Shown here one piece after another: positions 10,014 to 64,000 of a DNA stretch of 64,000 nt. The notes beneath the pieces are model-generated. The model saw only the letters and a program-made list of their open reading frames with translations, made no database searches and was not told the DNA's origin. This DNA comes from Gemmatimonadales bacterium (GTDB lineage: Bacteria; Gemmatimonadota; Gemmatimonadetes; Gemmatimonadales; GWC2-71-9), in NCBI GenBank assembly GCA_048499805.1, contig JASNZF010000002.1, positions 311,882 through 375,881 on the forward strand, read 5' to 3'. Numbering within the stretch: position 1 is the stretch's first letter; each line of letters begins with the position of its first letter. The translations under genes and the position numbers were made by a program.

Positions 10014-10020
10014 TTCGCTT

Positions 10021-10491: not shown

Positions 10492-10510
10492 GGCTTCCTA
10501 GGGTGGGGGA

Positions 10511-11688: not shown

Positions 11689-11762
11689 GGAGTCTCCTGG
11701 TCTGGTTGCCTTGGCAGCGCTGCCACAATCGACCGTGCGCCAAATGTGAAAAGAGGGCGTGC

Positions 11763-15941: not shown

Positions 15942-16110
15942 GCGATAAGATGCCACCTACAAAGGCAGGATTTGGTATGGGTACTGAGGCAGGGCGAGTT
16001 GTGTCAGCCATTCTCGTTGTTCAACGCGCACGTGAGGCACTTGTGTCTTGTGCACGCGGCAATAGAGCGCGGTACTCGCGCATCGGGCGAGTCGTGGCAG
16101 CGGAGTTACG

Positions 16111-18420: not shown

Positions 18421-18546
18421 GGCACCAGGATCCCGATGACATGTACCACCAGGTGTACCAGAAGTGGTGTAGCGTGGTGTAGAACCAGGATGTCTGGTGC
18501 TAGGCTTTGTGCGGGGTGGGACGGTGCCGACTGGCCTTGTCCGGCC

Positions 18547-18588
18547 CTCATAATGCCGGGGTCGCGGGTTCGAGTCCCGCCCCTGCTA
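18547..18588 (+). pseudogene. 3' half of host tRNA-Met(CAU), from anticodon loop to discriminator (attR side)
   Basis: Carries loop ctcataa, stem 3' strand tgccg, variable gggtc, T-arm and acceptor 3' strand. The tgccg strand pairs 5/5 with cggca at 8196-8200. The last 32 nt are identical to 8364-8395. Confidence 0.8.
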
Positions 18589-18589
18589 T

Positions 18590-48626: not shown

Positions 48627-49144
48627 GCGAAGACACATTCCAGCTGACCCCGCACGACGTGCGGGCCCAGGAGTTCCAGAAGGTGCTCCGGGGCTACGAT
48701 CCGGTGCAGGTCGAGGACTTCAAGTCCCGGCTTGCCGAGGAACTCGACCGGCTGCTCCGCCACCGGGTCGGGCTCGACGAGCGCCTCAAGGGGATGATGG
48801 AGCAGCTGCGCTCGTTCCGCGAGCGGGAGCGGGCGCTGAACGAGGGTGTGGTGATGGCCCAGCAGCTCCGGGCCGATTCGCAGGCCTCCGCCGAGCGGGA
48901 AGCGGAGATCATCCTCAAGGAGGCCCGGCACGAGGCGGAGACGATCGTCGAGGAGGCCCGCCGGGAGGGGGCGCGCCTGGTCGAGCAGGCCCGGGCCGAT
49001 GACGAGCGGCTCCGGAGTGCCATGGAGGCCTCGGTCCGGCAGTACTCGGCCTACCTCTCCAGCTTCCGGTCGCTGCTGGAGCGCCAACTTGCCGAGGTGG
49101 CCGCGCTGGAGAAGCACCGCCACCGGGACGACGCCCCGGCATGA
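48623..49144 (+). CDS. DivIVA-domain protein
   Basis: LTPHDVRAQEFQKVLRGYDPVQVEDF N-terminal DivIVA motif plus coiled coil. Confidence 0.85.
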   Translation: MSEDTFQLTPHDVRAQEFQKVLRGYDPVQVEDFKSRLAEELDRLLRHRVGLDERLKGMMEQLRSFRERERALNEGVVMAQQLRADSQASAEREAEIILKEARHEAETIVEEARREGARLVEQARADDERLRSAMEASVRQYSAYLSSFRSLLERQLAEVAALEKHRHRDDAPA

Positions 49145-52100
49145 CCTGGACCCCGTGGCCTGCCGGTACCGCGGACGACCTCGAGCGCGCGCTGCTGGCG
49201 CGCTGGAAGGACGAGGGGTTGTTCACGCAGGTGCAGGAGGCCTCGGCCGCCGGGGAACCCTTCGTGTTCTTCGAGGGCCCGCCCACCGCCAACGGCCGTC
49301 CCGGGATCCACCACGTCTTCTCCCGGACGATCAAGGACCTGGTCTGCCGGTTCCGGGTGATGCAGGGGCGCTCGGTGACGCGGATCGCGGGGTGGGACAC
49401 CCACGGCCTTCCGGTCGAGATCGAGGTCGAGAAGCAGCTCGGGCTCTCGGGCAAGAAGGCGATCGAGGCGTACGGGGTCGAGGCCTTCAATGCCCTGTGC
49501 CGGCAGAGCGTCTTCACCTACAAGGACGAGTGGGAGCGGCTCTCCGACCGGATCGGGTACTGGCTCGACTACGACCGTCCCTACATCACCTGCTCTCCCG
49601 AGTATGTCGAGAGCGTCTGGTGGCTGCTCCGGCGGCTGGCCGATCGCGGCCTGCTGACCCGCGGGCACCGGGTGCTGCCGTACTGCCCGCGCTGTGGCAC
49701 CGTCCTCTCCTCGCATGAGCTGGCGCTGGGGTACGAGGACGTCACCACCAACTCGGTCTACGTCCTCTTCCCGCTCGAGGACGATCCGCAGCGCCAGCTG
49801 CTGGTCTGGACGACGACCCCGTGGACGCTGCTCTCGAACGTTGCGGTGGCGGTGCATCCGGAGCTGGAGTACGGGGAGTACCCGGTCGGCGACCGGACGG
49901 TGATCCTCGCCGTGGCGCGGGCGGGGCTGCCGAGTGGGGCGGAGAAGGGCGCGCCCACCTTTGCGGAGATTGGCGCCCTCCGGACCTTTCCCGGTCGGGA
50001 GCTCGCCGGGCTTCGGTACCAGCGGCCGCTCGAGCTGGTGGACCTGCCGCTCGACGCCCACTCCCGGATCGTGGTGCCCGAGGAGTTCGTCTCGGCCGAG
50101 GACGGGTCGGGGCTGGTGCACATGGCCCCGGCCTTCGGGGCGGACGACCATGCCGCGGGGCAGCGCCACGGACTGGCGATGGTGCGGCCGGTCGCCAACG
50201 ACGGGACGTTCACCGGCACCAGCTGGCCGGAGCTCGAGGGACGGCTGGTCACCGCCAAGGAGACCAACGACCTGATCGTCCAGCGCCTCAAGCAGGGGGG
50301 GCGCTGGCACCTGACCCAATCGTACAGCCACAGCTATCCGCACTGCTGGCGCTGTCGCAGTGCGCTGATCTACACCGCCCGCGACTCCTGGTTCGTCCGG
50401 ACCTCCGAGGTCAAGGCCCGGATGCAGGAACTCAATGCCGGGGTCAACTGGAATCCCCCCGAGGTGGGCTCCGGCCGGTTCGGGGAATGGCTGAGCAACA
50501 ACGTTGACTGGGCGCTGTCCCGCGACCGTTACTGGGGGACGCCGCTTCCGGTGTGGGTCAGTGACACCGACCCCGCGTGCGTCGAGGTGATCGGGTCGTT
50601 CGCCGAGCTGGCCGAGAAGGTGGGCCGGCCGCTGCCGGATGAGTTCGATCCCCACAAGCCGTTCATCGATGAGTACACCTGGCCGGCTCCCGGCGGCGGA
50701 ACGATGCGCCGGACCCCCGAGGTGATCGACACCTGGTTCGACTCCGGGGCCATGCCCTACGCGCAGTGGCACTACCCGTTCGAGAACACGGAGCTGTTCG
50801 AGCGGCACTTCCCCGCCGACTACATCTGCGAGGGGGTGGACCAGACCCGCGGGTGGTTCTACTCGCTGCTCGCGATCGGCACGGCCGCGTTCGACCGGGC
50901 CCCGTATCGCAACGTGATCGTCAACGACCTGGTGCTCGACGCCGCCGGCCAGAAGATGTCCAAGAGCCGCGGCAACGCCGTGGAGCCCGGGGCGGTGATC
51001 GCCGAGCACGGCGCCGACAGTGTCCGGCTCTTCCTGCTGGCCTCGGGGCAGGTCTGGCTGCCGAAGAAGTTCGATCCCCGGGTGATTCCCGAGGCGGCCG
51101 GCAAGCCACTCAACGCCCTGCGGAACGTGTACGCGTTCTTCCAGCAGTATGCCGGCCCGTGGCGGCCGGAGGATGGCCTCGGGGGCGCCACGCCCACCAC
51201 GCTCGACGACTGGATCGTGAGCCGGCTGCAGGCCACCGTGGATGCGGTGGTGGCAGCCTGGGAGGGCTACGATGTGACCACGGGGGTGCGGAGCATCCTC
51301 GAGTTCATCGTCGAGGACCTCTCCAACTGGTACGTCCGCCAGTCGCGGGCCCGGTTCTGGGCGCCCGACCAGGAGGCCGATCCGGCCGCCGTGGCCACCC
51401 TGCATCGCTGCCTGGTGACGGTGAGCCAGCTGCTCGCCCCTGCGGCGCCGTTCGTCGGCGACTGGATTCATCGCGCCGCCACGGGGGGGTCGGTGCACCT
51501 GGCCAGCTTTCCCGAAGCGGGGGGACCGCGCGACGCGGCGCTCGAGGAGGCGATGGATGCCATCCGCCGGCTGGTCACCGCCGCCCGGGCCGCCCGGGAG
51601 CAGGCGGGCATCATCGTGCGGCAGCCGCTCGGCGAGGTCCAGGTGGCCGTGCCCGCCGCTTCGGACACCGCGCGATTCCGGGAGCTGCTGCCCCTGCTGG
51701 CGCAGGAGGTCAATGTCCACCGGGTGACCGTGGTCACCAGCGACGCCGACCTGGTACGGCTGGTCGGCCGCCCCAACTTCCGCGCCCTCGGCAAGCGGTT
51801 CGGCAAGCGGACCCCGGTGGTGGCGAAGGCGGCCGAGGCGCTGGCACCCGACCTCCTCCGGGCGCTGGAACGTGGTGAGACGGTCGTCACGACGGTGGAG
51901 GGCCAGGCCGAGGACCTGCTGCCTGGCGAAGTGGAGGTGCATCGCGAGGTGGTCAGCGACTGGCTGGTGCAGAGTCAGGGCGCCTTCGTTGTGGCCCTCG
52001 ATCCCGCCCTGACGCCCGATCTCCGCCGCGAGGGGCTCGCCCGTGAGATCGTGAGCCGGGTCCAGCGGCTCCGGAAGGACTCGGGCTACCACTACACCGA

Positions 52101-52332
52101 CCGGATCGCGCTGGCGGTGGAGGGGCCGGACGAGGTCCTGGCCGCCGTGCGGGCGCACGAGCAGTTCATCCGCGGGGAGACACTGACCCGCGAGTTGGCA
52201 ACGGGGGCGGGGCTGGAGCCCGCCGACCGGCAGGAGGAAGTCACCATCGATGGAGTGGCCCTGCGACTCTCGGTCCGTCGCGTGCCCGGTCCCTCGTCCA
52301 CGCTTGACCCGCAACCCATGGAAGCCTCATGA
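49141..52332 (+). CDS. ileS: Isoleucine--tRNA ligase
   Basis: HIGH-region PTANGRPGIHH, KMSKS loop (GQKMSKSRGN), CP1 editing domain, 1063 aa. Confidence 0.97.
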   Translation: MTWTPWPAGTADDLERALLARWKDEGLFTQVQEASAAGEPFVFFEGPPTANGRPGIHHVFSRTIKDLVCRFRVMQGRSVTRIAGWDTHGLPVEIEVEKQLGLSGKKAIEAYGVEAFNALCRQSVFTYKDEWERLSDRIGYWLDYDRPYITCSPEYVESVWWLLRRLADRGLLTRGHRVLPYCPRCGTVLSSHELALGYEDVTTNSVYVLFPLEDDPQRQLLVWTTTPWTLLSNVAVAVHPELEYGEYPVGDRTVILAVARAGLPSGAEKGAPTFAEIGALRTFPGRELAGLRYQRPLELVDLPLDAHSRIVVPEEFVSAEDGSGLVHMAPAFGADDHAAGQRHGLAMVRPVANDGTFTGTSWPELEGRLVTAKETNDLIVQRLKQGGRWHLTQSYSHSYPHCWRCRSALIYTARDSWFVRTSEVKARMQELNAGVNWNPPEVGSGRFGEWLSNNVDWALSRDRYWGTPLPVWVSDTDPACVEVIGSFAELAEKVGRPLPDEFDPHKPFIDEYTWPAPGGGTMRRTPEVIDTWFDSGAMPYAQWHYPFENTELFERHFPADYICEGVDQTRGWFYSLLAIGTAAFDRAPYRNVIVNDLVLDAAGQKMSKSRGNAVEPGAVIAEHGADSVRLFLLASGQVWLPKKFDPRVIPEAAGKPLNALRNVYAFFQQYAGPWRPEDGLGGATPTTLDDWIVSRLQATVDAVVAAWEGYDVTTGVRSILEFIVEDLSNWYVRQSRARFWAPDQEADPAAVATLHRCLVTVSQLLAPAAPFVGDWIHRAATGGSVHLASFPEAGGPRDAALEEAMDAIRRLVTAARAAREQAGIIVRQPLGEVQVAVPAASDTARFRELLPLLAQEVNVHRVTVVTSDADLVRLVGRPNFRALGKRFGKRTPVVAKAAEALAPDLLRALERGETVVTTVEGQAEDLLPGEVEVHREVVSDWLVQSQGAFVVALDPALTPDLRREGLAREIVSRVQRLRKDSGYHYTDRIALAVEGPDEVLAAVRAHEQFIRGETLTRELATGAGLEPADRQEEVTIDGVALRLSVRRVPGPSSTLDPQPMEAS

Positions 52333-52712
52333 ACAAGAAGCAGCTGGCCCACCTCGAGCAGCGCCTCATCGCCGAGCGCGCGCGCGTGATGAAGGAACTC
52401 GGCTACTACGGGGAGTCGTTCAACACGACCCTGCAGGGGTCGGACGGGGACCTCTCCTCCTACTCGTTCCACATGGCCGACCAGGGCACGGACACGATGG
52501 AGCGCGAGAAGCAGTTCCTGTTCGCGTCCCAGGAGGGCCGGTACCTCTGGCACGTCAACGAGGCGCTCCGCCGCCTCTACAGCTCGCCGGCCACCTTCGG
52601 CACCTGTCACAGCTGCGGGGAGGAGATCGCGTTCGACCGCCTGGACGCCCTGCCGCACGCACGGCTCTGCATCACCTGCAAGGCGAAGGAAGAGGATGCC
52701 AAGCGCCGCTGA
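52329..52712 (+). CDS. DksA/TraR-family C4 zinc-finger protein
   Basis: CHSCGEEI ... CITC four-Cys finger. Conserved location between ileS and lspA. Confidence 0.8.
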   Translation: MNKKQLAHLEQRLIAERARVMKELGYYGESFNTTLQGSDGDLSSYSFHMADQGTDTMEREKQFLFASQEGRYLWHVNEALRRLYSSPATFGTCHSCGEEIAFDRLDALPHARLCITCKAKEEDAKRR

Positions 52713-53205
52713 CCGGCGGGCACTGTTCTGGGGAGCGGTCGGGACGGTGATCCTCCTCGACCTGGCCACCAAGTGGTGGGCGGTGGAGACGCTGGTGCTG
52801 TACGAGCCGATTCCGGTGCTCGGCGACACCCTTCGCTGGCGGTTGATCTACAACCCGGGGGCGGCCTTCGGGCTGCACCTCGGTCCCTGGTCGCGGTGGA
52901 TCTTCCAGATCATCGCGGTGGTGGCGTTCGTGGTGCTCTTCCGAATGTCGCGCGAGGCGCGTCCCGGCGACTGGGTGCGCCAGCTTTCGTTGGGCGCGGT
53001 GGCGGGCGGAGCCCTCGGCAACCTGATTGACCGGGTCCGCGGCGCCCAGGGCGTCGTGGACTTCATCGATGCGGGGATCGGCACGGCGCGCTGGCCCACG
53101 TTCAACATCGCCGATATCGGCGTTTCCTGCGGCGCCATCGTGCTGGCCCTTTCCCTCTGGCGCGAGGACCAGGCCAAGGCCCGCGCCGACGCGTCGGCCA
53201 CCTGA
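52696..53205 (+). CDS. lspA: Lipoprotein signal peptidase II
   Basis: Four TM helices, NPGAAFG and FNIADIGV motifs. Confidence 0.9.
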   Translation: MPSAADRRALFWGAVGTVILLDLATKWWAVETLVLYEPIPVLGDTLRWRLIYNPGAAFGLHLGPWSRWIFQIIAVVAFVVLFRMSREARPGDWVRQLSLGAVAGGALGNLIDRVRGAQGVVDFIDAGIGTARWPTFNIADIGVSCGAIVLALSLWREDQAKARADASAT

Positions 53206-53215
53206 GCGACACCCC

Positions 53216-54226
53216 GTGACCCGGGTCGTCCTTTCGGTCGCCACCGACGCCACCGATCGGCTCGATCGCTTTCTCGCCGACCAGCTCGACCTCTCCCGCA
53301 CCCAGGCCGCCCGCCTGGTCGCCGCCGGGGCCGTACAGGTGGCCGGGAAACCCGCCCGCGCCTCCCGCCTGCTGGTTCGCGGCGAGGAGGTCGTGGTCAC
53401 CTATCCCGAGGCCGAGCCACCCCGGACCCTGACCCCCAACCCGCTGCCGCTGACGGTGGTGCATGAGGACGAGCACCTCGTGGTGCTCGACAAGCCCGCC
53501 GGCCTGGTGGTCCATCCGGCGCCGGGACACTGGGACGACACGCTCGTCAATGCGCTGGTGGCCCGGGGGACGACCCTCTCCGGGGGGGCTGCAGGCCGCC
53601 CGGGGATCGTGCACCGGCTCGACCGGGATACCTCCGGCCTGATGGTGGTGGCCAAGACCGACCAGGCCCACCGCCGGCTGTCGGCAGCGATCGCCGCCCG
53701 GAAGGTCTCGCGGATCTACGCCGCCCTCTCGTGGGGGCACCTGCCGGAGACGAGGGTCTTGATCGACGCTCCGGTGGGTCGGCACCCCCGCGACCGGAAG
53801 CGGATGGCGGTCCTGCCGGAGGGGCGCCCCGCCCGGACCCTGGCGCAGGTGGTGGCCCGGTTCGAGTCCGCGGAACTGGTCCGGCTGACCCTGCAGACCG
53901 GCCGGACCCACCAGATCCGGGTCCACCTGGAGTCGATTGGCCACCCGATCGTGGGCGACGCGGTCTACCATGGGGGAGGGAGCCGGCGGATCTCCGGGGG
54001 GGGGCGGCAGGGCGCCGACCGCCTCGCCCGGGCCGCCCCGCGGCAGGCGCTACATGCGGCGGAACTGGGATTTCGCCATCCCGGCACGGGGCAGCCGGTG
54101 GTGTTCCGGAGCGAGTGGCCGCGTGATTTGGGGCCGGCACTGGTGGAAGCCGCTGGTGGCACGATTTCTGTTGCAGAGGAGCATCAGCTCCAATATCTTC
54201 GATTCTTCGAGGATCATGACGACTGA
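53216..54226 (+). CDS. rluD: RluA-family 23S rRNA pseudouridine synthase (RluD-like)
   Basis: GTG 53216. S4 domain (RLDRFLADQL...SRTQAARL) and catalytic HRLDRDTSGLMVVAK. Confidence 0.88.
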   Translation: MTRVVLSVATDATDRLDRFLADQLDLSRTQAARLVAAGAVQVAGKPARASRLLVRGEEVVVTYPEAEPPRTLTPNPLPLTVVHEDEHLVVLDKPAGLVVHPAPGHWDDTLVNALVARGTTLSGGAAGRPGIVHRLDRDTSGLMVVAKTDQAHRRLSAAIAARKVSRIYAALSWGHLPETRVLIDAPVGRHPRDRKRMAVLPEGRPARTLAQVVARFESAELVRLTLQTGRTHQIRVHLESIGHPIVGDAVYHGGGSRRISGGGRQGADRLARAAPRQALHAAELGFRHPGTGQPVVFRSEWPRDLGPALVEAAGGTISVAEEHQLQYLRFFEDHDD

Positions 54227-54665
54227 GGGTTCCGGGATCCGGGTGCTCCGGTGCCGCTCCGGGGCGATCGAGTGGGCCATCCGGGTCGAGGCCCTGCGGG
54301 AGATTGCCCCCGGGTCGGCGGCCGCACGGGTGCCCGGGGCTCCCGCCGCAGTGCTCGGGGTGGTGAATGTGCGGGGAAGCCTGCTGGTCGCGCTGGATAC
54401 CCGGGTCTTCCTGGGCCAGCCGGCTGCGGGGGGCACCGGTCCCCTGGTGGTCGTCGAGGTCGGGGGGCGCCGGCTGGCCCTGTCGGTAGATGAGGTGGAC
54501 GACCTGGAGACCGTGGCGATCGCGTTGCTGGAGCCGGCCGAGCCACCGGCGGAGATGCCGGCGGGTGGCGTGATCGCCCTGGTGCGCGAGGATCGACCGT
54601 TCCTGTTGCTCGACATCGAAGCCCTCGCAGCGCCCCTTTTCGGGGTTGGCTCGGGGCAGCCCTGA
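54216..54665 (+). CDS. cheW: CheW-like coupling protein
   Basis: ATG 54216. GVVNVRGSLLVALD and RLALSVDEVDDLE pattern of the CheW domain. Confidence 0.8.
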   Translation: MTTEGSGIRVLRCRSGAIEWAIRVEALREIAPGSAAARVPGAPAAVLGVVNVRGSLLVALDTRVFLGQPAAGGTGPLVVVEVGGRRLALSVDEVDDLETVAIALLEPAEPPAEMPAGGVIALVREDRPFLLLDIEALAAPLFGVGSGQP

Positions 54666-54681
54666 CGCGGTGGAGGATGCA

Positions 54682-55044
54682 GTGGCCCATACAGTGCTGG
54701 TCTGTGACGATGCCATCTTCATGCGGACCATGATCGCCGACATCCTGACCCAGGCCGGGTACAAGGTGGTGGGCGAGGCGGAGAGTGGCGTCGAGGCGGT
54801 CCGCCAGTACCAGGAGCTCAAGCCGGACCTGGTCACCATGGACATCGTGATGCCGGAGATGGGCGGCATCGACGCCGTCCGCGAGATCATCAAGATGTAC
54901 CCCGAGGCCCGGATCCTGATGTGCAGTGCCATGGGGCAGCAGGCCCTCGTGGTGGAGGCGATCCAGGCCGGCGCCAAGGACTTCGTCGTCAAGCCGTTCC
55001 AGCCCGCCCGCGTGCTCGAGGCCGTTCAGCGCCTCCTGAGCTGA
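54682..55044 (+). CDS. cheY: CheY-like single-domain response regulator
   Basis: VLVCDDAIFMR, phospho-acceptor VTMDIVMPEMGG, and AKDFVVKPF. GTG 54682 follows ggagg; earlier in-frame starts are at 54646 and 54670. Confidence 0.88.
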   Translation: MAHTVLVCDDAIFMRTMIADILTQAGYKVVGEAESGVEAVRQYQELKPDLVTMDIVMPEMGGIDAVREIIKMYPEARILMCSAMGQQALVVEAIQAGAKDFVVKPFQPARVLEAVQRLLS

Positions 55045-55055
55045 CCGCCCCTCCG

Positions 55056-56924
55056 GTGGACACCAGCAAGTATGCCGCGCTGTTCCTGTCCGACAGCCGG
55101 GACAACCTCCAGCAATGCGACGCGCTCCTGATGGCCTGGGAGGCCGAGCCGGCGGTGATCGAGCCGGTGGCCGGGCTCTTCCGGTCGATGCACAGCATCA
55201 AGGGGATGGCGGCGACGATGGGGTATGCGCGGTTGGCGGAGCTGACCCATCGCGCCGAGGACCTCCTGGCCCGGGTGCGCGGCGGGAGCCTCCCACCGAC
55301 GCGCGACCTCGTGGCATTGATGTTCGAGGTCGTGGATGCCATTGGCACCGGGGTGGAGGACGCGGTGGCCGGGGTGGATGGGGAGCGGATCGACGCGTCG
55401 CTGGTGGCCCGGATCGAAGCGCTGGCGGAGGCGGCGCCGGAGGTCGCGCCCCAGGTGGCCGCGCCAACGGTCCCGGCCGGGCCGACGCCTCCCGAGGCGG
55501 GGGCACGGGTCACCGTGACGATTCGCCCCGGCGTGGTCATGGGGTGGGCCCGGGCGCTGCTCGCCCTGCGCCGCGCGGGGGAGCTGGGGCGGGTCTCCGC
55601 CGTGGATCCCGATCCGGCGTCGGTTGCCCCGGAGGGGTTCGCGGGTACGATCGCCTTCCGGCTCGAGTCCTCGGAACCGCCCGAGCTGATCCGGTCGGCG
55701 CTGCTCGGGGTGGGCGAGGTGGCCGATGTCGTGGTCGAGGACGGCCGGGCGCGGGTCGCGGCCGCGCCGCCCCGGACCCGGCAGGACGTCCGGGTGGCGC
55801 GGGAAACCCTCGATCGGCTGCTCGCCCAGGTGGGCGAACTGGTGGTGGCGCGCAATCGGCTGGCCGATGCGGCGGAACTGCGGCGGGATCCCGGCCTCGA
55901 CGAACTGGTTGGCAGCCTGTCGCGGCTCACCGACCAGGTGCACGAGGGCATCCTCCAGGCCCGGATGGCGCCGGTGGCAGAGGTCTTCGATCGCTTTCCC
56001 CGTGCGATCCGCGACCTCGCGCGCCAGGTGGGGAAGGAAGTCCGCCTCGAGGTGGTGGGCCGGGAGATCGAGCTCGATCGCTCGGTGCTCGAACGGATCC
56101 AGGATCCCCTGCTGCACCTGTTGCGCAATGCGGTGGATCACGGCCTCGAGGATCCGGCCACCCGCGAGGCGCTCGGCAAGCCGCCCGGGGGGCTGGTCCG
56201 GCTCGAGGCCCAGCGGATGCGCGACGGCGTGGTGATCACCGTTGCCGATGACGGCCGCGGGGTCGATCGCGACCGGGTCCGCCGCCGGATCGGGGCCGAA
56301 GCGCCGGCCTCCGTGGAGCTGGACGACTCGGCGCTGCTCTCGGTGCTCGCCCGACCCGGATTCAGTACCGCCGACGAGGTCACCTCCGTGAGTGGCCGCG
56401 GGGTGGGCATCGATGTCGTCCTGACCCGGATCCGCGAGATCGGGGGATCGGTGGCGCTGCGCTCCACCCCGGGCGAGGGCACCACGTTCCAGGTGCGGCT
56501 CCCCGAGACGATGGCGGTGGTGCCCGCGCTGCTCGCCCGTGCCGGGGCGGAGCGCTACGCGATTCCGCTGGCGCGGGTCCACGAGACCGGGCGGGCGGTG
56601 CCGGAGACAGGGGAGGGGAATCGGCTGGCCGTAACCTTTCGTGGCGAGGTGCTGCCGGCCCGCGACCTGCTCCGTGTGGTCGGGCAGGGCGGCGTCCCCG
56701 TCGGCGAGATCCGGCCCTTCCTGGTGGTGGGGGTCGGGGAGGGGCGTGGGGTGATCGTTGTGGATAGATTACTCGGGCGGCAGGACCTGGTGGTGGCCTC
56801 AGTGGAGCTTCCCCTGGGCGCCCCCTCGTGGATCACCGGGGCGGCGCTCCTGCCCGACGGCATGCCCGCCTTGCTGCTGGATCCCGGTGGCCTGTTCCTG
56901 GAGGAGATGGTATGGCAGAGGTGA
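55056..56924 (+). CDS. cheA: Chemotaxis histidine kinase CheA
   Basis: Hpt domain with HSIKGMAATMG, dimerisation region, HATPase (HLLRNAVDHG, DDGRG, GRGVG), C-terminal CheW-like domain. Confidence 0.9.
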   Translation: MDTSKYAALFLSDSRDNLQQCDALLMAWEAEPAVIEPVAGLFRSMHSIKGMAATMGYARLAELTHRAEDLLARVRGGSLPPTRDLVALMFEVVDAIGTGVEDAVAGVDGERIDASLVARIEALAEAAPEVAPQVAAPTVPAGPTPPEAGARVTVTIRPGVVMGWARALLALRRAGELGRVSAVDPDPASVAPEGFAGTIAFRLESSEPPELIRSALLGVGEVADVVVEDGRARVAAAPPRTRQDVRVARETLDRLLAQVGELVVARNRLADAAELRRDPGLDELVGSLSRLTDQVHEGILQARMAPVAEVFDRFPRAIRDLARQVGKEVRLEVVGREIELDRSVLERIQDPLLHLLRNAVDHGLEDPATREALGKPPGGLVRLEAQRMRDGVVITVADDGRGVDRDRVRRRIGAEAPASVELDDSALLSVLARPGFSTADEVTSVSGRGVGIDVVLTRIREIGGSVALRSTPGEGTTFQVRLPETMAVVPALLARAGAERYAIPLARVHETGRAVPETGEGNRLAVTFRGEVLPARDLLRVVGQGGVPVGEIRPFLVVGVGEGRGVIVVDRLLGRQDLVVASVELPLGAPSWITGAALLPDGMPALLLDPGGLFLEEMVWQR

Positions 56925-57532
56925 GGGCGCTGAACAATCTGGAGCGTGACGCGCTCCGCGAGGTGGCCAACATCGGCGCGGGGCATGCCGCGACTGCCCT
57001 GTCGCAGATGACCGGCCGCACCATCATGATCGACGTCCCCGAGGTGGAGATCCGCCGCCTCGAAGAGGTCGCCGAGTTGGTGGGTCCTCCCGACACGGTG
57101 ATCGCGGCGATCCTGATGCACATGATGGGCGACCTGACCGGCCGGACGATGGTGCTCCTGCCGGACGCCTCCGCGCGCGTGCTGTGCGACATCCTCCTCC
57201 AGCGAAAGGTCGGCACCACGTCGGGGTATGCCGCCATGGAGCATTCGACGCTCAAGGAGACCGGCAATATCCTGAGTTCCGCCTACCTGAACGCCCTGAG
57301 CGATTTCATGGGCATGATGCTGCTGCCCTCGGTGCCCAGCCTGGTGGTGGACCTTGCCGGAGCCGTCCTGACGACGGCCTACCTCAACTTCGGCGCCGAT
57401 CGCGACCTCGTCTTCTGCGTGGACACCTCCTTCCGGGTCGAGGGCGCGTCCGAGGCGCTGCGTGGCCAGTTCCTCCTCCTGCCCGACCTGCCGTCCCTCC
57501 ACGCGATCTTCGACGCGATTCGACTCGACTGA
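56912..57532 (+). CDS. cheC: CheC-family CheY-P phosphatase
   Basis: Two E-x2-N active-site motifs (LREVANIGAGHAA and LKETGNILSSAYL). Overlaps the cheA 3' end by 13 nt. Confidence 0.85.
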   Translation: MAEVRALNNLERDALREVANIGAGHAATALSQMTGRTIMIDVPEVEIRRLEEVAELVGPPDTVIAAILMHMMGDLTGRTMVLLPDASARVLCDILLQRKVGTTSGYAAMEHSTLKETGNILSSAYLNALSDFMGMMLLPSVPSLVVDLAGAVLTTAYLNFGADRDLVFCVDTSFRVEGASEALRGQFLLLPDLPSLHAIFDAIRLD

Positions 57533-57535
57533 CGG

Positions 57536-60205
57536 ATGCCGGGACCGGCGCCATCCTCCCGCGAGCGCGCCATCCTGCACGCGCTCGGTCGCCGGATTGA
57601 TCCCTCCGACCCCGGCGCCCAGAACAACCTCGGGGTCCTCTTCCACGCCAAGGGAATGCCGGCCGAGGCCATCACCGCCTTCGTCCGGGCACTCGAACTC
57701 GATCCTCGGATGGCCCTGGCCCGGCGCAACCTCGAGCAGGTTCGGCGCGAGTCGGGCTACTATGACCGGCGGATCACCGAACTCAGCGAACAGCTGGCGC
57801 GGGATGCGGCCCGGGAAGACCTCCGCCTGGAACTGGGGCGCACCTGGCTGGCCCTGGGGGATCCCGAGCGCGCCGCCGCCGAGTTCCAGGTCCTGCACGA
57901 GCAGCGCCCCGGCGATGCCGGTGCCCTGATCCAGCTCGGCCTGGCCGCGCAGGCCAGCGGCCGGCACGATGCGGCCACCGACTGGTTCCGGAAGGCGGTC
58001 GCCCTGGAGCCCGAGAGCGGAGTCGCCCGGGTCTACCTGGGCGAGGCGCTCTACAACCAGGGGCTCAACGAACCGGCCCTCGAGGCGCTGACGGAGGCGC
58101 TCGCCCGGAGCCCCGACAACCCCGACCTCCACTTCCTGCTGGGGTTTGTCCAGGGTGACATGGGCGACCACGAGGCCGCCCGCGAGTCCGCCCGGCGGGC
58201 CATCGCCCTCAATCCCAGCCTCGCCCAGTCGGAACCGAACCTGGACCTCTCGCCGGGGCGTCGCCCGCGACTGACCCCGCCCCCCGGCGCCCGGCAGTCG
58301 CCGATCGCCGGCCCGGATCCACACACCGCCCTCGGTCGCGCCTTCCGGGCCCGCGGGTACCTGGCCGAGGCGCTCCGGGAATTCCGGCTCGCCCTGGACG
58401 GGGGCGAGGATCGGGCCGAGGCGCTCGAGGCGATGGCCGAGGTGCACGTGCTGCGGCGCGACTTCGCTCCCGCCCTCGACCTCTACGATCTCCTGCTGGC
58501 CGACCAGCCGGGGAATGCCCGGCTCTGGAACGCGCGGGGCGTCACCCTCCACCGGGCCGGTCGGCGGTCCGAGGCGCGCGCCGCCTATCGCCGGGCGGTC
58601 GAGTCCGATCCGACCTCCCATCAGGCCTGGAACAACCTCGGGGTGATCGCGGCGGGAGACCCACAGGGTCGGGACGCCGAGGAGGCGTTCCGCGCCGCCT
58701 TGCGGAGCAAGCCGGGGTTCCTGCAGGCCCGGCTCAACCTCGGGTTGTTCCAGTTCAGCCGACAGCGCTACCAGGAGGCGCTCGAGGAATACCGGGCGGT
58801 GCTGGTCGATCACCCGCGCAGCGCGGTGGCCTGGAACGGGGTCGGCCTGGTCCTGCAGGAGCTCCGGCGCACCAGCGATGCGAGGAATGCCTTTGGCCGG
58901 GCGGTGGACGCCGATCCCAACCTGGCCGGCGCCCGGTACAACCTCGCCTTCGCGCTGAGCCAGCTGGGCGAGTTCGAGGCGGCGCTGCGCGAAACCAGCC
59001 GTGCCCTCGAGCTCGAGCCGTATTACGTGCCGCAGAACTACGCCCTGGCCCTCCATCTCCCCGGGGAGGAAGGGATCATCCAGGTCGCACCGGACCTGAT
59101 GGGGGAGCTGTCCGGCGCCGCCGCCGGTGAATTCGTGTTCGACCCCGCGCTCCTCGATTCGCTCTTCGAGGAGATCGCTCCCCCCGCCCCGGAGGAGCCC
59201 GTCAAGGCCGCTGCGGATCCCTTCGCGCTGGCCCGGGACTACCTGAGCAAGGGCCTGCTCGAACTGGCGACCGCGGAGGCGAGCCGTGCGGTCGGTCGGG
59301 GTGCCCCGCGCGACGAAGCGGACATCCTGCTGGGCGAGGTCTACGCCCGCCGGGGGCTCCATGGCGAGGCGCTGGAGCGGTTCCAGTCTGCCCGGGAACG
59401 CAATCCCGAGAACCCGCGGGCACTTCTCGGGGCCGTCGCCTCGCTGCTGGCGCTGGATCGGCACTCGGAAGCGGTCCCCGCCGGGGAACTGCTGGTCGAG
59501 GTGGCGCCGACCCTGGCCGAGGCCTGGTCCTCGCGGGCCCGGATCCGGCTCGGCCTCGGCCTGGCGGGGCCGGCGCTGGAGGATGCGCGGGAGGCCTCGC
59601 GCCTCGACCCAGGGTGCGCCGAGCACCTGTTGCTCGAGGGGACGGCGGCGCGTCAGCTGGGCGACTTCGAGGGCGCGCTGCAGGCCTGTCGTGCCGCGCT
59701 CGCCCTCGACAAGGGACTGGCCCAGGCTTGGCTCGTCGTGGCCGAGATCGAGGTGGCGCGGGGCAACCTGGCGGAGGCGGTCGAGGGGTACCGGCGCGCG
59801 CTGGAGATCCTGCCGGCGCACCGGCAGGGGGTGCTGGCCCTCGCGCAGCTGCTCTGTCGCACCGACCGGGCCGGGGAGGCGGTGACGCTGGTGGCCAGTT
59901 ACCTGCAGGCCGAGCCGTTCGCCCTCGACGCCCTCATGATACTGGGGCAGGCGCTGCACCAGGACGGCCGCCCCGCCGAGGCGGTGCGCGCCTTCGACCG
60001 GGTGCTCCGCTTCGAGGCCGACCGCGCCGACGCCTGCTTCCACCGGGGAGCGGCCCGCGCGGCACTGCGCCAGTACCGGGCGGCGATCGCCGACTGGGAC
60101 CGGGTGGTCGCGCTGGAACCGCGGGGCGCCCTGGCCAGTGCGGCCCGCGCCCACGCCCGCAGCGCGCGGGAACTGCAGGGCATCCTCAAGCCGACGGAGC
60201 GCTGA
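57536..60205 (+). CDS. Large tetratricopeptide-repeat protein (889 aa)
   Basis: TPR-like A/L/G/N-rich 34-aa periodicity throughout (..AWNNLGV.., ..ARLNLGL.., ..ARYNLAF..). Confidence 0.8.
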   Translation: MPGPAPSSRERAILHALGRRIDPSDPGAQNNLGVLFHAKGMPAEAITAFVRALELDPRMALARRNLEQVRRESGYYDRRITELSEQLARDAAREDLRLELGRTWLALGDPERAAAEFQVLHEQRPGDAGALIQLGLAAQASGRHDAATDWFRKAVALEPESGVARVYLGEALYNQGLNEPALEALTEALARSPDNPDLHFLLGFVQGDMGDHEAARESARRAIALNPSLAQSEPNLDLSPGRRPRLTPPPGARQSPIAGPDPHTALGRAFRARGYLAEALREFRLALDGGEDRAEALEAMAEVHVLRRDFAPALDLYDLLLADQPGNARLWNARGVTLHRAGRRSEARAAYRRAVESDPTSHQAWNNLGVIAAGDPQGRDAEEAFRAALRSKPGFLQARLNLGLFQFSRQRYQEALEEYRAVLVDHPRSAVAWNGVGLVLQELRRTSDARNAFGRAVDADPNLAGARYNLAFALSQLGEFEAALRETSRALELEPYYVPQNYALALHLPGEEGIIQVAPDLMGELSGAAAGEFVFDPALLDSLFEEIAPPAPEEPVKAAADPFALARDYLSKGLLELATAEASRAVGRGAPRDEADILLGEVYARRGLHGEALERFQSARERNPENPRALLGAVASLLALDRHSEAVPAGELLVEVAPTLAEAWSSRARIRLGLGLAGPALEDAREASRLDPGCAEHLLLEGTAARQLGDFEGALQACRAALALDKGLAQAWLVVAEIEVARGNLAEAVEGYRRALEILPAHRQGVLALAQLLCRTDRAGEAVTLVASYLQAEPFALDALMILGQALHQDGRPAEAVRAFDRVLRFEADRADACFHRGAARAALRQYRAAIADWDRVVALEPRGALASAARAHARSARELQGILKPTER

Positions 60206-60208
60206 GCG

Positions 60209-61363
60209 ATGGCGATCCAGGGCCCACTGCGCGAGTTGGGCGTGCACGATGTCTTCCAGCTGCTCGATCTCGGGCGCAAGACCGGCACCCTGCGCATCCG
60301 GTCGGAGCTGCGCCAGAACCGGGGGACGATCTGGTTCGAACGGGGCGCGGTGGTGGCCGCCGCGATCGACAGCAACCCGCACCCGCTCGGCGGGATCCTG
60401 TTGCGGACCGGCAAGCTGCGCGAGGAGGATCTGGCCCGCGCCGTGCGAATGCAGGAACAGGGCGACACCCGCCGGATCGGCGAGATCCTCGTCGGGCTCA
60501 ACGCGATCACCCGGCGCGTCCTGGAGGAGCAGGTGCGCACCCAGGTCGAGGATGTCGTCTTCACCCTGCTCGGCTGGTCCGAGGGCCACTTCATCTTCGA
60601 GGAGGGGGAGGGGGACGACATCCCCCGCGACGCGGAGGTCCGGATCACCACCGAGTCGGTGCTCCTCGAGGCGGCGCGCCGGATCGACGAATGGTCCCAG
60701 ATCGAGTCCCAGGTGCCGCACCTTGGCGTCGTCGCCCAGCTCGCGGTCCTGCCCGGCGAGGACCGCCCCGGCTCCCTGCGCCTGGTGCCCTTCGAATGGC
60801 GGGTCCTGACCGCGGTCGATGGCTCTCGGGACGTCCGGGCAATCGCCACCGCCGTGGGGGCCTCGGAATTTGCCACTGCCCGGGCCCTATTCGGGCTGAC
60901 CTCGGCCGGTGTTATCGTCCTGCACGACGCCGCCGCCGCCTCGGTGGCCGCCGCGGCCGATCTCGAGGCGGATACGCTCCTCCAGCAGGCGGAGGAACAC
61001 CTCCGGTTGCATGACATCGAGGCGGCCCGGACGGTGGCGCGCGCGGCGCTGGCGGGACACCCTTCCGAGCCCGCGCCCCAGGTGTTTTTGGGACGGTTGG
61101 CGCTGATCGAGGGGCGGGTCCTCGATGCCCAGGAGCACCTTCGCGACGGGCTCCGGATGGATCCGGGCCACGCGCAGGCACGCCGGTTGCTCGGTGCAGC
61201 ACTGGCGGCCTCCGGGCGAATGGAGGAGGCGGCCCGGACCTGGGAGGAGTGGCTGGCGCTCGATCGCCGCCCCGTGGAGGAGGAACGACGTCGCGCCCAG
61301 GTCGCGGGAGGAGCCGCCGCCGCCCGGGTACTGGCCGACCTGATGAGGATGAGCAGTGACTGA
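60209..61363 (+). CDS. PATAN (DUF4388) domain protein with C-terminal TPR region
   Basis: N-terminus GPLRELGVHDVFQLLDLGRKTGTLRI is the DUF4388/PATAN signature. TPR-like C-terminus. Confidence 0.75.
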   Translation: MAIQGPLRELGVHDVFQLLDLGRKTGTLRIRSELRQNRGTIWFERGAVVAAAIDSNPHPLGGILLRTGKLREEDLARAVRMQEQGDTRRIGEILVGLNAITRRVLEEQVRTQVEDVVFTLLGWSEGHFIFEEGEGDDIPRDAEVRITTESVLLEAARRIDEWSQIESQVPHLGVVAQLAVLPGEDRPGSLRLVPFEWRVLTAVDGSRDVRAIATAVGASEFATARALFGLTSAGVIVLHDAAAASVAAAADLEADTLLQQAEEHLRLHDIEAARTVARAALAGHPSEPAPQVFLGRLALIEGRVLDAQEHLRDGLRMDPGHAQARRLLGAALAASGRMEEAARTWEEWLALDRRPVEEERRRAQVAGGAAAARVLADLMRMSSD

Positions 61364-62135
61364 TCCGATTGCCGCCTGGACCGCCGAGCTCAGCGCCGAC
61401 CCCGACAGCCTGGTCTTCCTCCAGCTCGGGGAGGCGCTGCGCCGCCGCCGCCTGCTCGACGGTGCCCTCGCGGTGGCGAAGGGCGGGGTGCAGCGCTATC
61501 CGGACCTGGCCGAGGCTCACGACCTCCTGGCCCGGGTCCTGTCCGACCGCGGGGAGGGCGATGCCGCATTCGATGCCTGGACCACCGCCCTCCGGCTGCA
61601 GCCCGAGATGGTCGGTCCCCTGAAGGGGCTCGGCTTCCTCTGCTATCGGATGGGCGACTTCGTCCGGGCGTTGCGCCAGCTGGAGGCGGCCGCCGCGCTC
61701 GCCCCCGATGATCCCAGTCTGGCGGTGGCCATCCCGCGGGTGCGCGCCCGCCTCGAGCAGCAGGCGACCGGGATGCCCGCCGACCCGTTCGAGGGGACCG
61801 AGGGTTGGCATGGCACCACCATGCTCCTCGACGCCCGCGGCCGACGGCTGGCCGGCAGCCTGCTTGCCCCGGACGGCGAGGATCACTCGGATGCCATTGC
61901 CGCCCGGCTCGCCGGGGTCTCCCGCGAGGCCAATCGGGCCGCCGTGCTGCTCGACCTCGGCTACTGGCACGCCATCCAGGTCGAGGGCCGCTCCGCCCAG
62001 CTGGTACTCACCGAACCGGCCAAGGAGGTCGTGCTGGTCATCCAGCGTCCCGCTGACACCCCGCCAGGACGCCTGCCGCTGATCGCCGATCGCGCCGGGG
62101 CCCTGGCGCGCCGGTGGCTGGAGCGGATGGCATGA
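61356..62135 (+). CDS. TPR plus Roadblock/LC7-like fusion protein
   Basis: N-terminal TPR helices. The C-terminal half (TTMLLDARGRRLAGSL ... VLVIQRPADTPPGRL) resembles Roadblock/LC7. Confidence 0.6.
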   Translation: MTDPIAAWTAELSADPDSLVFLQLGEALRRRRLLDGALAVAKGGVQRYPDLAEAHDLLARVLSDRGEGDAAFDAWTTALRLQPEMVGPLKGLGFLCYRMGDFVRALRQLEAAAALAPDDPSLAVAIPRVRARLEQQATGMPADPFEGTEGWHGTTMLLDARGRRLAGSLLAPDGEDHSDAIAARLAGVSREANRAAVLLDLGYWHAIQVEGRSAQLVLTEPAKEVVLVIQRPADTPPGRLPLIADRAGALARRWLERMA

Positions 62136-62482
62136 ACCGTTTCCTGACCGAGACCCTGGACCAGGTGTCCCGCGCCGACGGAGTGCGCGGGGCGCTCCTC
62201 GTCTCGGCGGAGGATGGCCTGGTCGTCGCCGAGGCGGCGATGGAGGGGATCGAGGCGGCGCCCGTCGCGGCGCTCGCGGCGAGCCTGGCTGGCCGCCTGG
62301 TCCAGGTGGCCGCGACGGCGGGGCAGGCCCCCCCCGCGCTGATCCACCTGGAGGCGACCGAGGGTGGCCTGTTCATCGCCATTGGCGAGGCGGGGCTCCT
62401 CCTGGTGGCGGTCACGACCGCCGACGCCAACGCCGGCGAGGTGCGCCTGGCGCTCCTCGACGGCGCCGGGCGGCTGTCCTGA
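62132..62482 (+). CDS. Roadblock/LC7-domain protein (MglC-like paralogue)
   Basis: ATGA overlap with the upstream gene. VRGALLVSAEDGLVVA ... LLLVAVTTADANAGEVR is a typical Roadblock pattern. Confidence 0.75.
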   Translation: MNRFLTETLDQVSRADGVRGALLVSAEDGLVVAEAAMEGIEAAPVAALAASLAGRLVQVAATAGQAPPALIHLEATEGGLFIAIGEAGLLLVAVTTADANAGEVRLALLDGAGRLS

Positions 62483-62943
62483 TGCGCGCCATCGAGCCGT
62501 GGGTGGAGGATCCGCTGCGGATCTTCCTGGCGGAGTCGGCTGCCCGAGTGGTCCTGCTGATGACGAGTGCGGGGCAGGTGATCGCGCAGCACGGCTTCAC
62601 CCGCTCGATGGACGTGATGTCGGCCGCTGCCCTCGGGGCCGGCATCGTCGCCAGCACCGAGGAGATCGGGCGAATCGTGGGCGATCCCGGCCTCGGTGCC
62701 CAGGCCCACCAGGGCAGCCGCCAGAGCATCGTCCTCTCCCCGTTCATGACCCCGGTCGGTCGGTGGATCGCGCTGGTGGTCTACGGCCCCGAGACCTCGC
62801 TGGGGCTGGTCCAGCTGTTCCTCAGCCGCATGGTGACCGACCTGCGCGTGGCGGCGCCAGTGGAGCCTGCCGCCCGGCCGGTGCTCGCCGAGGACTTCGA
62901 GCGCGACCTCAACGCGAGCCTCCGCTCCCTCTTCGGCCGGTAG
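62482..62943 (+). CDS. mglB: MglB-like Roadblock GTPase-activating protein
   Basis: VVLLMTSAGQVIAQHG ... ALVVYGPETSLGLVQLFLSRMVTDL parallels M. xanthus MglB (..TSLGLVRLRIKKA..). Sits directly upstream of mglA. Confidence 0.8.
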   Translation: MRAIEPWVEDPLRIFLAESAARVVLLMTSAGQVIAQHGFTRSMDVMSAAALGAGIVASTEEIGRIVGDPGLGAQAHQGSRQSIVLSPFMTPVGRWIALVVYGPETSLGLVQLFLSRMVTDLRVAAPVEPAARPVLAEDFERDLNASLRSLFGR

Positions 62944-62945
62944 TC

Positions 62946-63548
62946 ATGAGCCTCGTCAACTTTGCCTCGCGAGAGATCACCTGCAAGCTGGTCTACTATG
63001 GCCCCGGGCGCTCCGGCAAGACCACCAACCTGCACTACATCCACGGCCGGGTGCCCGAGATGCGCCGGGGACGGCTGATCTCGCTGGCCACCCAGTCGGA
63101 CCGGACCCTGTTCTTCGACTTCCTCCCGCTCGAACTGGGACAGATCTCGGGATTCACGACCCGCTTCCAGCTCTACACCGTGCCGGGGCAGGTCTACTAC
63201 AACGCCACCCGCCGCCTGGTGCTGCAGGGCGCCGACGGCGTCGTGTTCGTGGCCGACAGCCAGGCCCGACGGTTCCATGACAACGTCGAGAGCCTCCAGG
63301 ACCTGCAGGAGAACCTCCTGGACCACGGCGTCGACATCCGGGAACTGCCGCTGGTCATGCAGTACAACAAGCAGGACCTGCCGCGCGGCCTGACCCTGAC
63401 CCCCGAGGAACTGGACGACGCGCTGAATTTCCGGGGCGCGCCATCCCTGCCGGCCGATGCCCTCCACGGGGAAGGGGTGTTCGAGACCCTCAAGCAACTC
63501 TCCGGGCTGGTGCTGCAGCGGCTGGCCATGGCGCCGCCCGCGGGATGA
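62946..63548 (+). CDS. mglA: MglA, Ras-like polarity/motility GTPase
   Basis: Close to M. xanthus MglA over its full length (KLVYYGPGRSGKTTNL, DRTLFFDFLPL, LYTVPGQVYY, VVFVADSQ, QYNKQDL). Confidence 0.92.
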   Translation: MSLVNFASREITCKLVYYGPGRSGKTTNLHYIHGRVPEMRRGRLISLATQSDRTLFFDFLPLELGQISGFTTRFQLYTVPGQVYYNATRRLVLQGADGVVFVADSQARRFHDNVESLQDLQENLLDHGVDIRELPLVMQYNKQDLPRGLTLTPEELDDALNFRGAPSLPADALHGEGVFETLKQLSGLVLQRLAMAPPAG

Positions 63549-64000
63549 GCATCCTGGACCTCGAGGGCGCGACCTTCGAGACCTTCGTGGAGGGCCCCTC
63601 CAATCATGCCGCCGCCGCGGCGGCGCGCGAGGTTGCCGAGCACCCCACGGGCAGCGGCGCCTCACTCGTGCTCGTGGGCCCGCCCGGCGTCGGCAAGACC
63701 CACCTGCTGTCGGCGCTGACGGCGGCGGTGCGCGCCGGGGACTCCGGGTGCGAGGTGATCCAGGAGGCCGCCGCCGGCCTCCTCGATCGCGCCCGCGGCC
63801 TGGCCGGCGGGCTGGCCCCGCTGCACGAATGCGGACTGCTCGTGCTCGACGATGTCGACCAGATGGCCGGTCATCCGGAACTCGAGGGCGTCCTCCTCGA
63901 ACTCCTCCTGGGCCGCCTCCCGTTCGGGCGGCCGATCGTCCTGGCCAGCGCCCAGCCCCTCGACGCGCTCGGTCGGGTGGGTGCCGAGATCACCGAGCAG
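63545..64000 (+). CDS. DnaA/Hda-like AAA+ ATPase, N-terminal part (3' end outside window)
   Basis: ATGA overlap with mglA. TFETFVEGPSNHAAAAAAREVAE ... LVLVGPPGVGKTHLLSAL ... LLVLDDVD match DnaA domain III / Hda Walker A and B. The ORF is open to the window end and is not in the track. Confidence 0.7.
   Translation, partial: MSILDLEGATFETFVEGPSNHAAAAAAREVAEHPTGSGASLVLVGPPGVGKTHLLSALTAAVRAGDSGCEVIQEAAAGLLDRARGLAGGLAPLHECGLLVLDDVDQMAGHPELEGVLLELLLGRLPFGRPIVLASAQPLDALGRVGAEITEQ

Follow-up and report, generated by a model that had tools for sequence, protein, structure and literature searches.

An MglA GTPase module nested within a chemosensory gene cluster of Gemmatimonadota

A chemosensory gene cluster that encloses an Mgl module

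At the 3' end of a 64,000-nt stretch of DNA from a Gemmatimonadales bacterium (contig JASNZF010000002.1; hereafter the window), genes of a chemosensory (Che) pathway enclose a module built around the Ras-like GTPase MglA and an MglB-like Roadblock protein. Beyond mere adjacency, the Mgl module is nested between cheW-cheY-cheA-cheC and cheR-cheD-cheB, and this nested order is kept across the phylum Gemmatimonadota. Frz-MglA coupling and PATAN-Roadblock-MglA gene neighbourhoods are known; what is new is the enclosure, in a predicted che operon, of an MglA module together with a tandem DnaA-like AAA+ protein. With somewhat better than even confidence, we read the cluster as encoding a Che pathway with an embedded MglA switch as its partner or output, which would probably steer type IV pili.

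Open reading frame (ORF) calling guided by the G+C content at third codon positions (GC3), with domain checks by Pfam, NCBIfam and PDB sequence searches, confirmed eleven genes from 54216 to 64000, all on the + strand. They close a run of + strand genes extending from about 27 kb to the end of the window, whose overall G+C content is 71%.

54216-54665, + strand: cheW, 149 aa (Pfam CheW, E 4.5e-21); its start overlaps the rluD stop by 11 nt
54670-55044 (alternative start 54682), + strand: cheY, 124 aa (or 120 aa) (Pfam Response_reg, E 1.4e-30)
55056-56924, + strand: cheA, 622 aa, Hpt-P2-dimerisation-HATPase-CheW (five Pfam domains)
56912-57532, + strand: cheC, 206 aa (Pfam CheC in two stretches, E 4.6e-21)
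57536-60205, + strand: TPR protein (TPR889), 889 aa (many TPR models match in Pfam)
60209-61363, + strand: PATAN (DUF4388/PatA_N)-TPR protein, 384 aa (Pfam DUF4388, E 1.7e-31)
61356-62135, + strand: TPR-Roadblock fusion, 259 aa (Pfam TPR models and Robl_LC7 at 22.8 bits, cutoff 23)
62132-62482, + strand: stand-alone Roadblock/LC7 protein, 116 aa (Pfam Robl_LC7, E 3.4e-8)
62482-62943, + strand: mglB-like Roadblock protein, putative GTPase-activating protein (GAP), 153 aa (M. xanthus MglB in PDB, E 1.3e-11)
62946-63548, + strand: mglA paralog, Ras-like GTPase, 200 aa (MglA in PDB, E 1.5e-70)
63545-64000, continuing past the window, + strand: 5' part of the DnaA-like AAA+ gene (full protein 655 aa)

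The distances between successive genes, from cheW to the AAA+ gene, were +4 (+16 with the alternative cheY start), +11, -13, +3, +3, -8, -4, -1, +2 and -4 nt. The train of eleven co-oriented genes with gaps of at most 12 nt or overlaps, described in an earlier note on this DNA, is therefore real, its gaps reaching 11 nt (16 nt at the alternative cheY start). ATGA, GTGA or TGATG overlaps were read at many of the junctions. None of the gaps holds a terminator-like site, all four terminator-like matches falling inside genes, and a promoter/terminator consensus scan gave nothing informative. Judged by its sequence, the whole cluster is probably co-transcribed as one operon.

The window contains the first half of the cluster. 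The remainder was read from ten contigs (L001-L010) found by exact look-up of the MglA protein and 99.6-99.9% identical to the window, one from the metagenome-assembled genome (MAG) GCA_964386595.1 and the rest from several metagenomes. In these contigs mglA is followed by genes for the 655-aa AAA+ protein, a 538-aa PATANx2-TPR protein, CheR, CheD, CheB and a 280-aa TPR protein, with overlaps of 1-20 nt at most of the downstream junctions. The first two were located as follows.

L002 10600-12567, same strand as mglA: tandem AAA+ gene, its start being window position 63545 (Pfam, PDB matches)
L002 12567-14183: PATANx2-TPR gene, 538 aa (two PATAN stretches and TPRs by Pfam)

Because cheR-cheD-cheB lie downstream of mglA and cheWYAC upstream, the Mgl module is nested in the che genes, and the order of about 17 genes reads cheW-cheY-cheA-cheC, TPR889, PATAN-TPR, TPR-Roadblock, Roadblock, mglB, mglA, AAA+, PATANx2-TPR, cheR-cheD-cheB-TPR, with eight non-Che genes between cheC and cheR. 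Past the 280-aa TPR gene come small gaps and then genes for a Peptidase_MA_2 protein, a 63-aa protein with two transmembrane (TM) segments and a TPR protein that is secreted. A search with the exact AAA+ sequence yielded short contigs only. The cluster sits on one strand between ileS-dksA-lspA-rluD and the division and cell wall (dcw) genes rsmH-ftsL-ftsI; in the diverged relatives L091 and L092, rsmH lies downstream, and in L091 ftsL-ftsI come next (L091 20082-21974).

The earlier note had found no methyl-accepting chemotaxis protein (MCP), CheR or CheB in the window. None of these, nor CheD, was found anywhere in the 64 kb, and extending the sequence as that note proposed recovered cheR-cheD-cheB just past the window end. 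No MCP gene was detected in the window, in the 10 kb downstream or, by phmmer with an MCP probe, in the related loci, except in the outlier L063.

Conservation of the order was assessed from an MglA scan with one genome per species, which gave 596 confirmed genome matches. The best 80 loci, spanning about 20 kb, were examined and annotated by phmmer with the cluster proteins and the MCP probe. A related set of 54 loci (L011-L064; MglA identity 63-85% to the window copy) was labelled Gemmatimonadales, Gemmatimonadaceae or Longimicrobiales, apart from three with other or unclassified labels, and all 54 show the cluster type. Upstream, cheA, cheY and cheC were present in 28 of 28 loci whose flank is 8.3 kb or longer, and cheA in 30 of 30 with at least 6.7 kb; downstream, cheR/D/B were present in all 30 loci with at least 6.6 kb. 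The cheA side and the cheR/D/B side occurred together in every one of the 22 loci that have both flanks. PATAN was found upstream of mglA in 40 of 40 loci and the second PATAN-TPR downstream in 39 of 39, and every related cluster has a TPR889 ortholog. Identities to the window proteins were 36-43% for CheA, 32-40% for AAA+ and 50-63% for RluD. Support for a genomic link between a Che core and an MglA/MglB module is thus stronger than originally claimed, since the che genes bracket the module, and the suggested survey of relatives showed the nesting kept in all two-flank loci despite the low CheA identity. Precomputed Pfam annotation of L091 and L092 independently confirmed the same nested order.

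The clusters vary in their accessory genes. Both Gemmatimonadaceae loci L062 and L064 are without Roadblock and mglB, L064 having a 77-nt gap between PATAN-TPR and mglA, and L056 and L057 are without AAA+ and cheD; the Che-Mgl nesting is kept in all four. In L012, rluD is inverted and the signalling cluster intact. In many relatives, cheB is separated from the 280-aa TPR gene by one or two additional small genes with a CheW domain; the window species has none at this place.

L033 16525-17426; L092 14030-14922; L012 16564-17453: extra cheW genes (phmmer/Pfam)

The outlier L063 (1-12417) is from an unclassified MAG whose predicted proteins suggest a lower G+C content. Its order is Roadblock-mglB-mglA, a 456-aa AAA+, PATAN-TPR, cheR, cheD, a 215-aa membrane protein, cheB, TPR and a multi-TM MCP. 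No other cluster was seen to carry a receptor gene. Upstream, L063 is truncated by the end of its contig.

No che genes were found within 10 kb of mglA in the remaining 26 of the 80 loci, which come from Ignavibacteria, Zixibacteria, Planctomycetota, Fibrobacter, Myxococcota and others and include six labelled Gemmatimonadota.

Components of the cluster and a separate integrative element

The core of a Che pathway is complete, consisting of CheW, CheY and a CheA with the Hpt histidine, dimerisation, HATPase and CheW-like domains. CheA is a classical five-domain kinase with a single Hpt (MHSIKG) and no receiver domain (REC); HLLRNAVDHG, DDGRG and GRGVG (N/G1/G2 boxes) were read in its translation. 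Its P2 domain is of the Thermotoga maritima type (PF07194), its PDB matches are T. maritima and Escherichia coli CheA, and in NCBIfam it scored 350 bits with CheA_Halo versus 275 bits with the E. coli-type model. CheY is a single receiver domain in whose translation the DD pair, the phospho-acceptor Asp (TMDIVMP), the Ser and the Lys (KPF) are all present, and its best NCBIfam match is CheY_Halo (127.8 bits). CheC, a predicted phosphatase of phosphorylated CheY (CheY-P), carries both E-x2-N active-site motifs and matches CheC_Thermotogales in NCBIfam (E 9e-46). The adaptation enzymes CheR, CheB and CheD are encoded directly downstream in L001-L010, outside the window. CheC, CheD and a classical CheA with P2 are F1-class components. 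Because archaeal CheA and CheY and Thermotogales CheC are the best curated matches, with CheD in addition, the Che part resembles in sequence an F1-like rather than a Frz-like system. Identification as a Frz system was rejected, as CheA lacks REC and the cluster has no MCP and no dual-REC protein. The type IV pilus (Tfp) class (Pil-Chp, Tax) was likewise rejected, CheA having a single Hpt and no REC and the PATAN proteins no REC; multi-Hpt/REC CheA architectures mark Tfp and many alternative cellular function (ACF) systems (PMC10782961). Literature searches on Gemmatimonadota Che classes found nothing.

Group 1 MglA proteins are defined by the P-loop GxxxxGK[ST], an Arg equivalent to R53, TVPGQ (Thr for Asp in DxxG, then the catalytic Gln) and NKxD. 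Alignment to 6hjh/5ymx located these in the window MglA as GPGRSGKTT, SDRTLFFDF, LYTVPGQ and YNKQD. Its full-length PDB matches are Myxococcus xanthus MglA (E 1.5e-70) and Thermus MglA (E 3.9e-68). The close full-length match to Myxococcus MglA proposed earlier stands as to length, with 58% identity over 193 aa, but stand-alone MglA copies in the phylum are closer. Six such Gemmatimonadota-labelled copies were present, and the five compared (L072, L073, L079, L080 and L088, with L065 left out) showed 64-73% identity to M. xanthus MglA; the corresponding values are 58% for the window MglA and 49% for that of L064. In a neighbour-joining tree, all Che-embedded MglAs formed one clade carrying Gemmatimonadota labels and two other or unclassified labels, and the five stand-alone copies grouped with Myxococcota and others. 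The stand-alone copy of L072 (4888-10579) lies in a dnaX-(T2SSE-like ATPase)-recR-mglB-mglA context, and dnaX/recR/mglA synteny has been recorded for deltaproteobacteria (PMC3983030). Since the phylum keeps this separate canonical mglBA locus (dnaX-recR-mglB-mglA), the embedded MglA looks specialised; by its sequence, the window MglA is a diverged, apparently specialised paralog and not the phylum's canonical MglA. The mglB-like gene lies 2 nt upstream of mglA, the adjacency expected of a cognate Roadblock GAP. Its product also matches Thermus MglB in PDB and gave a weak match to the NCBIfam MglB model (28 bits, cutoff 200), and it is a putative GAP for MglA.

The C-terminal half of the TPR-Roadblock fusion was assigned by hhalign to the Roadblock family with 95% probability and to the MglB family with 85%. 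The 116-aa protein had been labelled MglC-like, a label that we drop: among solved structures it comes closest to a generic Robl_LC7 protein (7f8m, E 2e-4) and then to MglB and CvnB, and the PDB sequence search retrieved no MglC entry and no specific MglC relationship. TPR889 is a candidate scaffold or MglA effector; identity with SgmX or Bd2492 is not claimed, the TPR similarity being generic. No signal peptides or TM segments were predicted in any module protein, and all are therefore predicted to be cytoplasmic.

Two PATAN proteins flank the Roadblock-mglB-mglA-AAA+ block, and PATAN and Roadblock proteins are, as the earlier note had stated, documented MglA neighbours (PMC4316618). An alpha-clip insert in PATAN-TPR (residues about 59-112, window 60383-60544) holds a tandem MshEN-like motif, [R]LGxxLLxxGxLxxxxLxxAxxxQ, which is present in both PATAN proteins and conserved in 36 and 48 orthologs. 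PATAN-TPR scored 28.4 bits with the NCBIfam c-di-GMP_motif model, under the cutoff of 38. The motif fits the MshEN pattern for binding of cyclic di-GMP (c-di-GMP) reportedly described by Wang et al. in 2016, and by this resemblance it may provide a c-di-GMP input to the module.

The 655-aa AAA+ protein consists of an N-terminal Hda-like module, a helical linker and a C-terminal module like DnaA domain III, an architecture unlike both DnaA and single-domain Hda. In PDB sequence searches, residues 10-210 matched Hda (E 4e-9) and residues 377-592 DnaA domain III (E 3.8e-33), with Walker A and B motifs in both modules; no DNA-binding domain IV was detected by Pfam (no Bac_DnaA_C match). Its AlphaFold model (pLDDT, the predicted local confidence, 85.8) has a confident helical linker and is mostly disordered after residue 610, and Foldseek returned DnaA domain III matches, with a template modelling score of 0.90 to 8bv3. 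A resemblance to p97 was dismissed, as only the count of tandem AAA+ modules is shared and the root-mean-square deviation exceeded 22 A. The best 120 homologs are all about 650 aa long, and every named one is from Gemmatimonadota; their database annotation as 'chromosomal replication initiator protein DnaA' is probably a misnomer.

Elsewhere in the window, a 10.2-kb integrative element (8320-18589) of about 57% G+C, versus 71% for the genome, is inserted at a tRNA-Met gene (8320-8395). The 3' 43 nt of this gene (8353-8395) recur at 18547-18589 (95% identity), the two copies being attL/attR. The low-GC stretch at 8-18 kb had been considered as an rRNA operon, which was rejected, as Rfam gave only a tRNA.

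8579-9700, - strand: tyrosine integrase
13065-15941: MmeI-type restriction-modification enzyme
17110-18420, - strand: Rep_1 replication protein

Possible output of the pathway and alternative readings

A clue to the output comes from seven loci of Ignavibacteria/Zixibacteria type (L066, L068, L070, L074, L078, L084 and L086), where homologous PATAN, TPR, Roadblock, MglA and MglB genes occur in a similar order, comEC-PATAN-x124-TPR-x322-Roadblock-mglA-mglB-pilB; where the contig is long enough, most of them continue with pilT, pilC and pilS. In L066, this gene order spans 3706-17654, and the 392-aa MglA has at its C-terminus an uncharacterised extension of about 200 aa. These clusters differ from that of Gemmatimonadota in that mglB follows mglA and pilus motor genes come next, and in being without che genes, the tandem AAA+ and the second PATAN-TPR, all three of which the Gemmatimonadota cluster has. 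PATAN of PatA-type regulators is an output domain that binds PilB1 and PilC in Synechocystis (bioRxiv 10.1101/2021.06.11.447907). Because the homologous module adjoins pilB-pilT-pilC and PATAN binding to PilB1 and PilC has been published, the comparison points to type IV pili as the likely output.

From this, a sequence of events may be proposed. Chemoreceptors encoded elsewhere would drive the F1-like CheA/CheW kinase, with adaptation by CheR, CheB and CheD and resetting of the signal by CheC, as suggested by their domain content. CheY-P would then act on a cytoplasmic Roadblock/TPR/PATAN scaffold, and not, or not only, on a flagellar switch, thereby altering the activity of the MglB-type GAP or the localisation of the MglA paralog. 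We infer this step because the nested gene order is conserved and FrzX/FrzZ act on MglA/MglB in Myxococcus; control of the GTPase by CheY-P is thus argued by analogy. MglA-GTP, together with the PATAN and TPR proteins, would set where or when type IV pili are active, and the AAA+ protein could serve as an ATP-dependent oligomeric switch or scaffold.

Several observations weigh against an embedded MglA switch under Che control. The combination of CheC, CheD, a T. maritima-type P2 and a single Hpt with no REC is of flagellar or archaellar style, and Gemmatimonas aurantiaca is flagellated, so that the target of CheY-P may be the flagellar motor. No receiver domain was found by Pfam in any Mgl-module protein, the PATAN proteins included, and no CheY docking site could be named in the module. 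No pil genes occur in or beside the Gemmatimonadota cluster, and, L063 apart, it carries no MCP gene. Nor does the train begin at cheW, as had been thought: the packing continues from the housekeeping genes ileS-dksA-lspA-rluD (49141-54226), which are as compact as the train; other housekeeping genes also lie upstream. Because of this, tight same-strand packing is not specific to the che and mgl genes. Likewise, rluD lies directly upstream of the cluster in nearly all loci with enough flank, and lspA and dksA lie upstream of rluD wherever the flank reaches that far; since rluD is just as syntenic, conservation of order is not exclusive to functionally linked genes.

These points bear on a second reading, the main rival, which we hold to be unlikely while giving it real weight, that two independent systems share one transcription unit: a flagellar F1-like Che system and an Mgl/PATAN/TPR/AAA+ system for pili or polarity, brought together by co-regulation of motility genes or by a historical insertion. 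The flagellar F1-type look of the CheA architecture with CheC and CheD, an Mgl block that has no receiver domain, the equally compact and syntenic upstream genes and the occurrence in other phyla of a PATAN-Roadblock-MglA-MglB module without any che gene all fit it. It is less easily reconciled with an Mgl block that splits the che genes, so that cheRDB would need read-through or internal promoters, with nesting in all 22 two-flank loci at about 40% CheA identity, or with an embedded MglA that has diverged and looks specialised beside a separate canonical mglBA.

The direction of action could also be reversed, the GTPase/Roadblock/PATAN/TPR/AAA+ block serving to position, assemble, partition or gate the chemosensory array, an idea that we consider improbable. 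A polarity or NTPase module inside a che operon has precedent in the ParC/ParP and PpfA positioning modules, which Vibrio and Rhodobacter encode within che operons. TPR scaffolds, together with a DnaA-type AAA+ protein that oligomerises, would suit an assembly role, and many relatives have one or two extra CheW-like genes after cheB. Nevertheless, in the window species Pfam detected neither a ParA-like ATPase nor a ParP-like protein, and because the Ignavibacteria/Zixibacteria module stands beside pilB-pilT-pilC without che genes, the ancestral partner would appear to be the pilus motor and not a Che array.

Finally, the arrangement might have no functional meaning and reflect neutral synteny in a slowly rearranging backbone (ileS-dksA-lspA-rluD...rsmH-ftsL-ftsI). 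The flanking housekeeping genes keep their order too, and compaction is genome-wide on the + strand. Such an explanation is very hard to maintain for seventeen signalling genes with two related themes and coupling overlaps, several of whose components are at 32-43% identity. It also fits poorly with the intact cluster beside the inverted rluD of L012 and with single accessory losses (L062, L064; L056, L057) that leave the Che-Mgl nesting unbroken.

Returning to a Che pathway with an embedded MglA switch, a fuller version can be offered tentatively, at rather less than even confidence: a self-contained Gemmatimonadota circuit, independent of Frz, in which F1-type CheY-P directly flips the MglA paralog through the Roadblock/TPR/PATAN proteins and the AAA+ protein and so steers type IV pili. 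A c-di-GMP input may come in through the MshEN-like motifs conserved in the two PATAN proteins. If true, such a circuit would be a second, genetically compact model of chemosensory inversion of a Ras-like polarity switch, and would give DnaA-type AAA+ modules a new, non-replicative role.

Comparison with known systems

Che-to-small-GTPase polarity signalling has been worked out only in Myxococcus, where Frz and Mgl are unlinked and many partners are scattered. The Frz parts are FrzE, which is a CheA-REC fusion, the cytoplasmic MCP FrzCD, the dual-receiver protein FrzZ, and FrzX. Frz acts on MglA/MglB in Myxococcus and belongs to a small ACF-class subfamily confined to myxobacteria (PMC3441718). 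Like the Frz-MglA/MglB/RomR system of M. xanthus, the Gemmatimonadota cluster combines a Che-type pathway with MglA, MglB and extra Roadblock/TPR partners, and its MglA retains all catalytic signatures. Myxococcus has Frz and mglBA at separate loci; here, the Mgl genes are enclosed by the predicted che operon. Instead of CheA-REC, FrzCD and FrzZ/FrzX there are a five-domain CheA, CheC and CheD, with no MCP, RomR or dual-REC protein in the cluster, and the embedded MglA is a diverged paralog. The gene order kept across the phylum suggests a chemosensing-to-polarity-switch pathway that arose separately from Myxococcus Frz; if true, Che and MglA became coupled on more than one occasion, and from a different class of Che system.

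The cyanobacterial Tax/Pix systems share a Che-like pathway with PATAN-domain proteins of PatA type (PATAN-REC). There, PATAN is fused to a receiver and MglA takes no part, whereas here PATAN is fused to TPRs, without a receiver, beside MglA/MglB. With the F1 systems of Bacillus, Thermotoga and archaea, the cluster has in common the CheA-CheW-CheY-CheC-CheD-CheR-CheB set and the T. maritima-type P2; unlike them, it has eight non-Che genes between cheC and cheR and no adjacent MCP or flagellar gene. The candidate partners are thus found together: kinase, CheY, phosphatase, adaptation enzymes, three Roadblock proteins, two PATAN proteins, TPR scaffolds, GTPase and AAA+ protein. They form a defined parts list that is directly testable in cultured Gemmatimonas.

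PATAN-Roadblock-MglA/MglB gene neighbourhoods were reportedly described by Makarova et al. in 2006. For an earlier report of a Che-MglA operon, and for Gemmatimonadetes together with MglA, literature searches gave only the 2014 survey of Wuichet and Sogaard-Andersen (PMC4316618). This survey recorded MglA, MglB and PATAN neighbours only, with no che gene, and stated that Group 1 neighbourhoods vary widely. Its Table S2 lists G. aurantiaca GAU_1409 as 'PATAN>MglA>-PATAN>', which matches the cluster type described here and the L062/L064 variants without Roadblock and mglB. That survey does not describe the che bracket, the AAA+ gene or the conservation throughout the phylum, which are seen in the Gemmatimonadota cluster.

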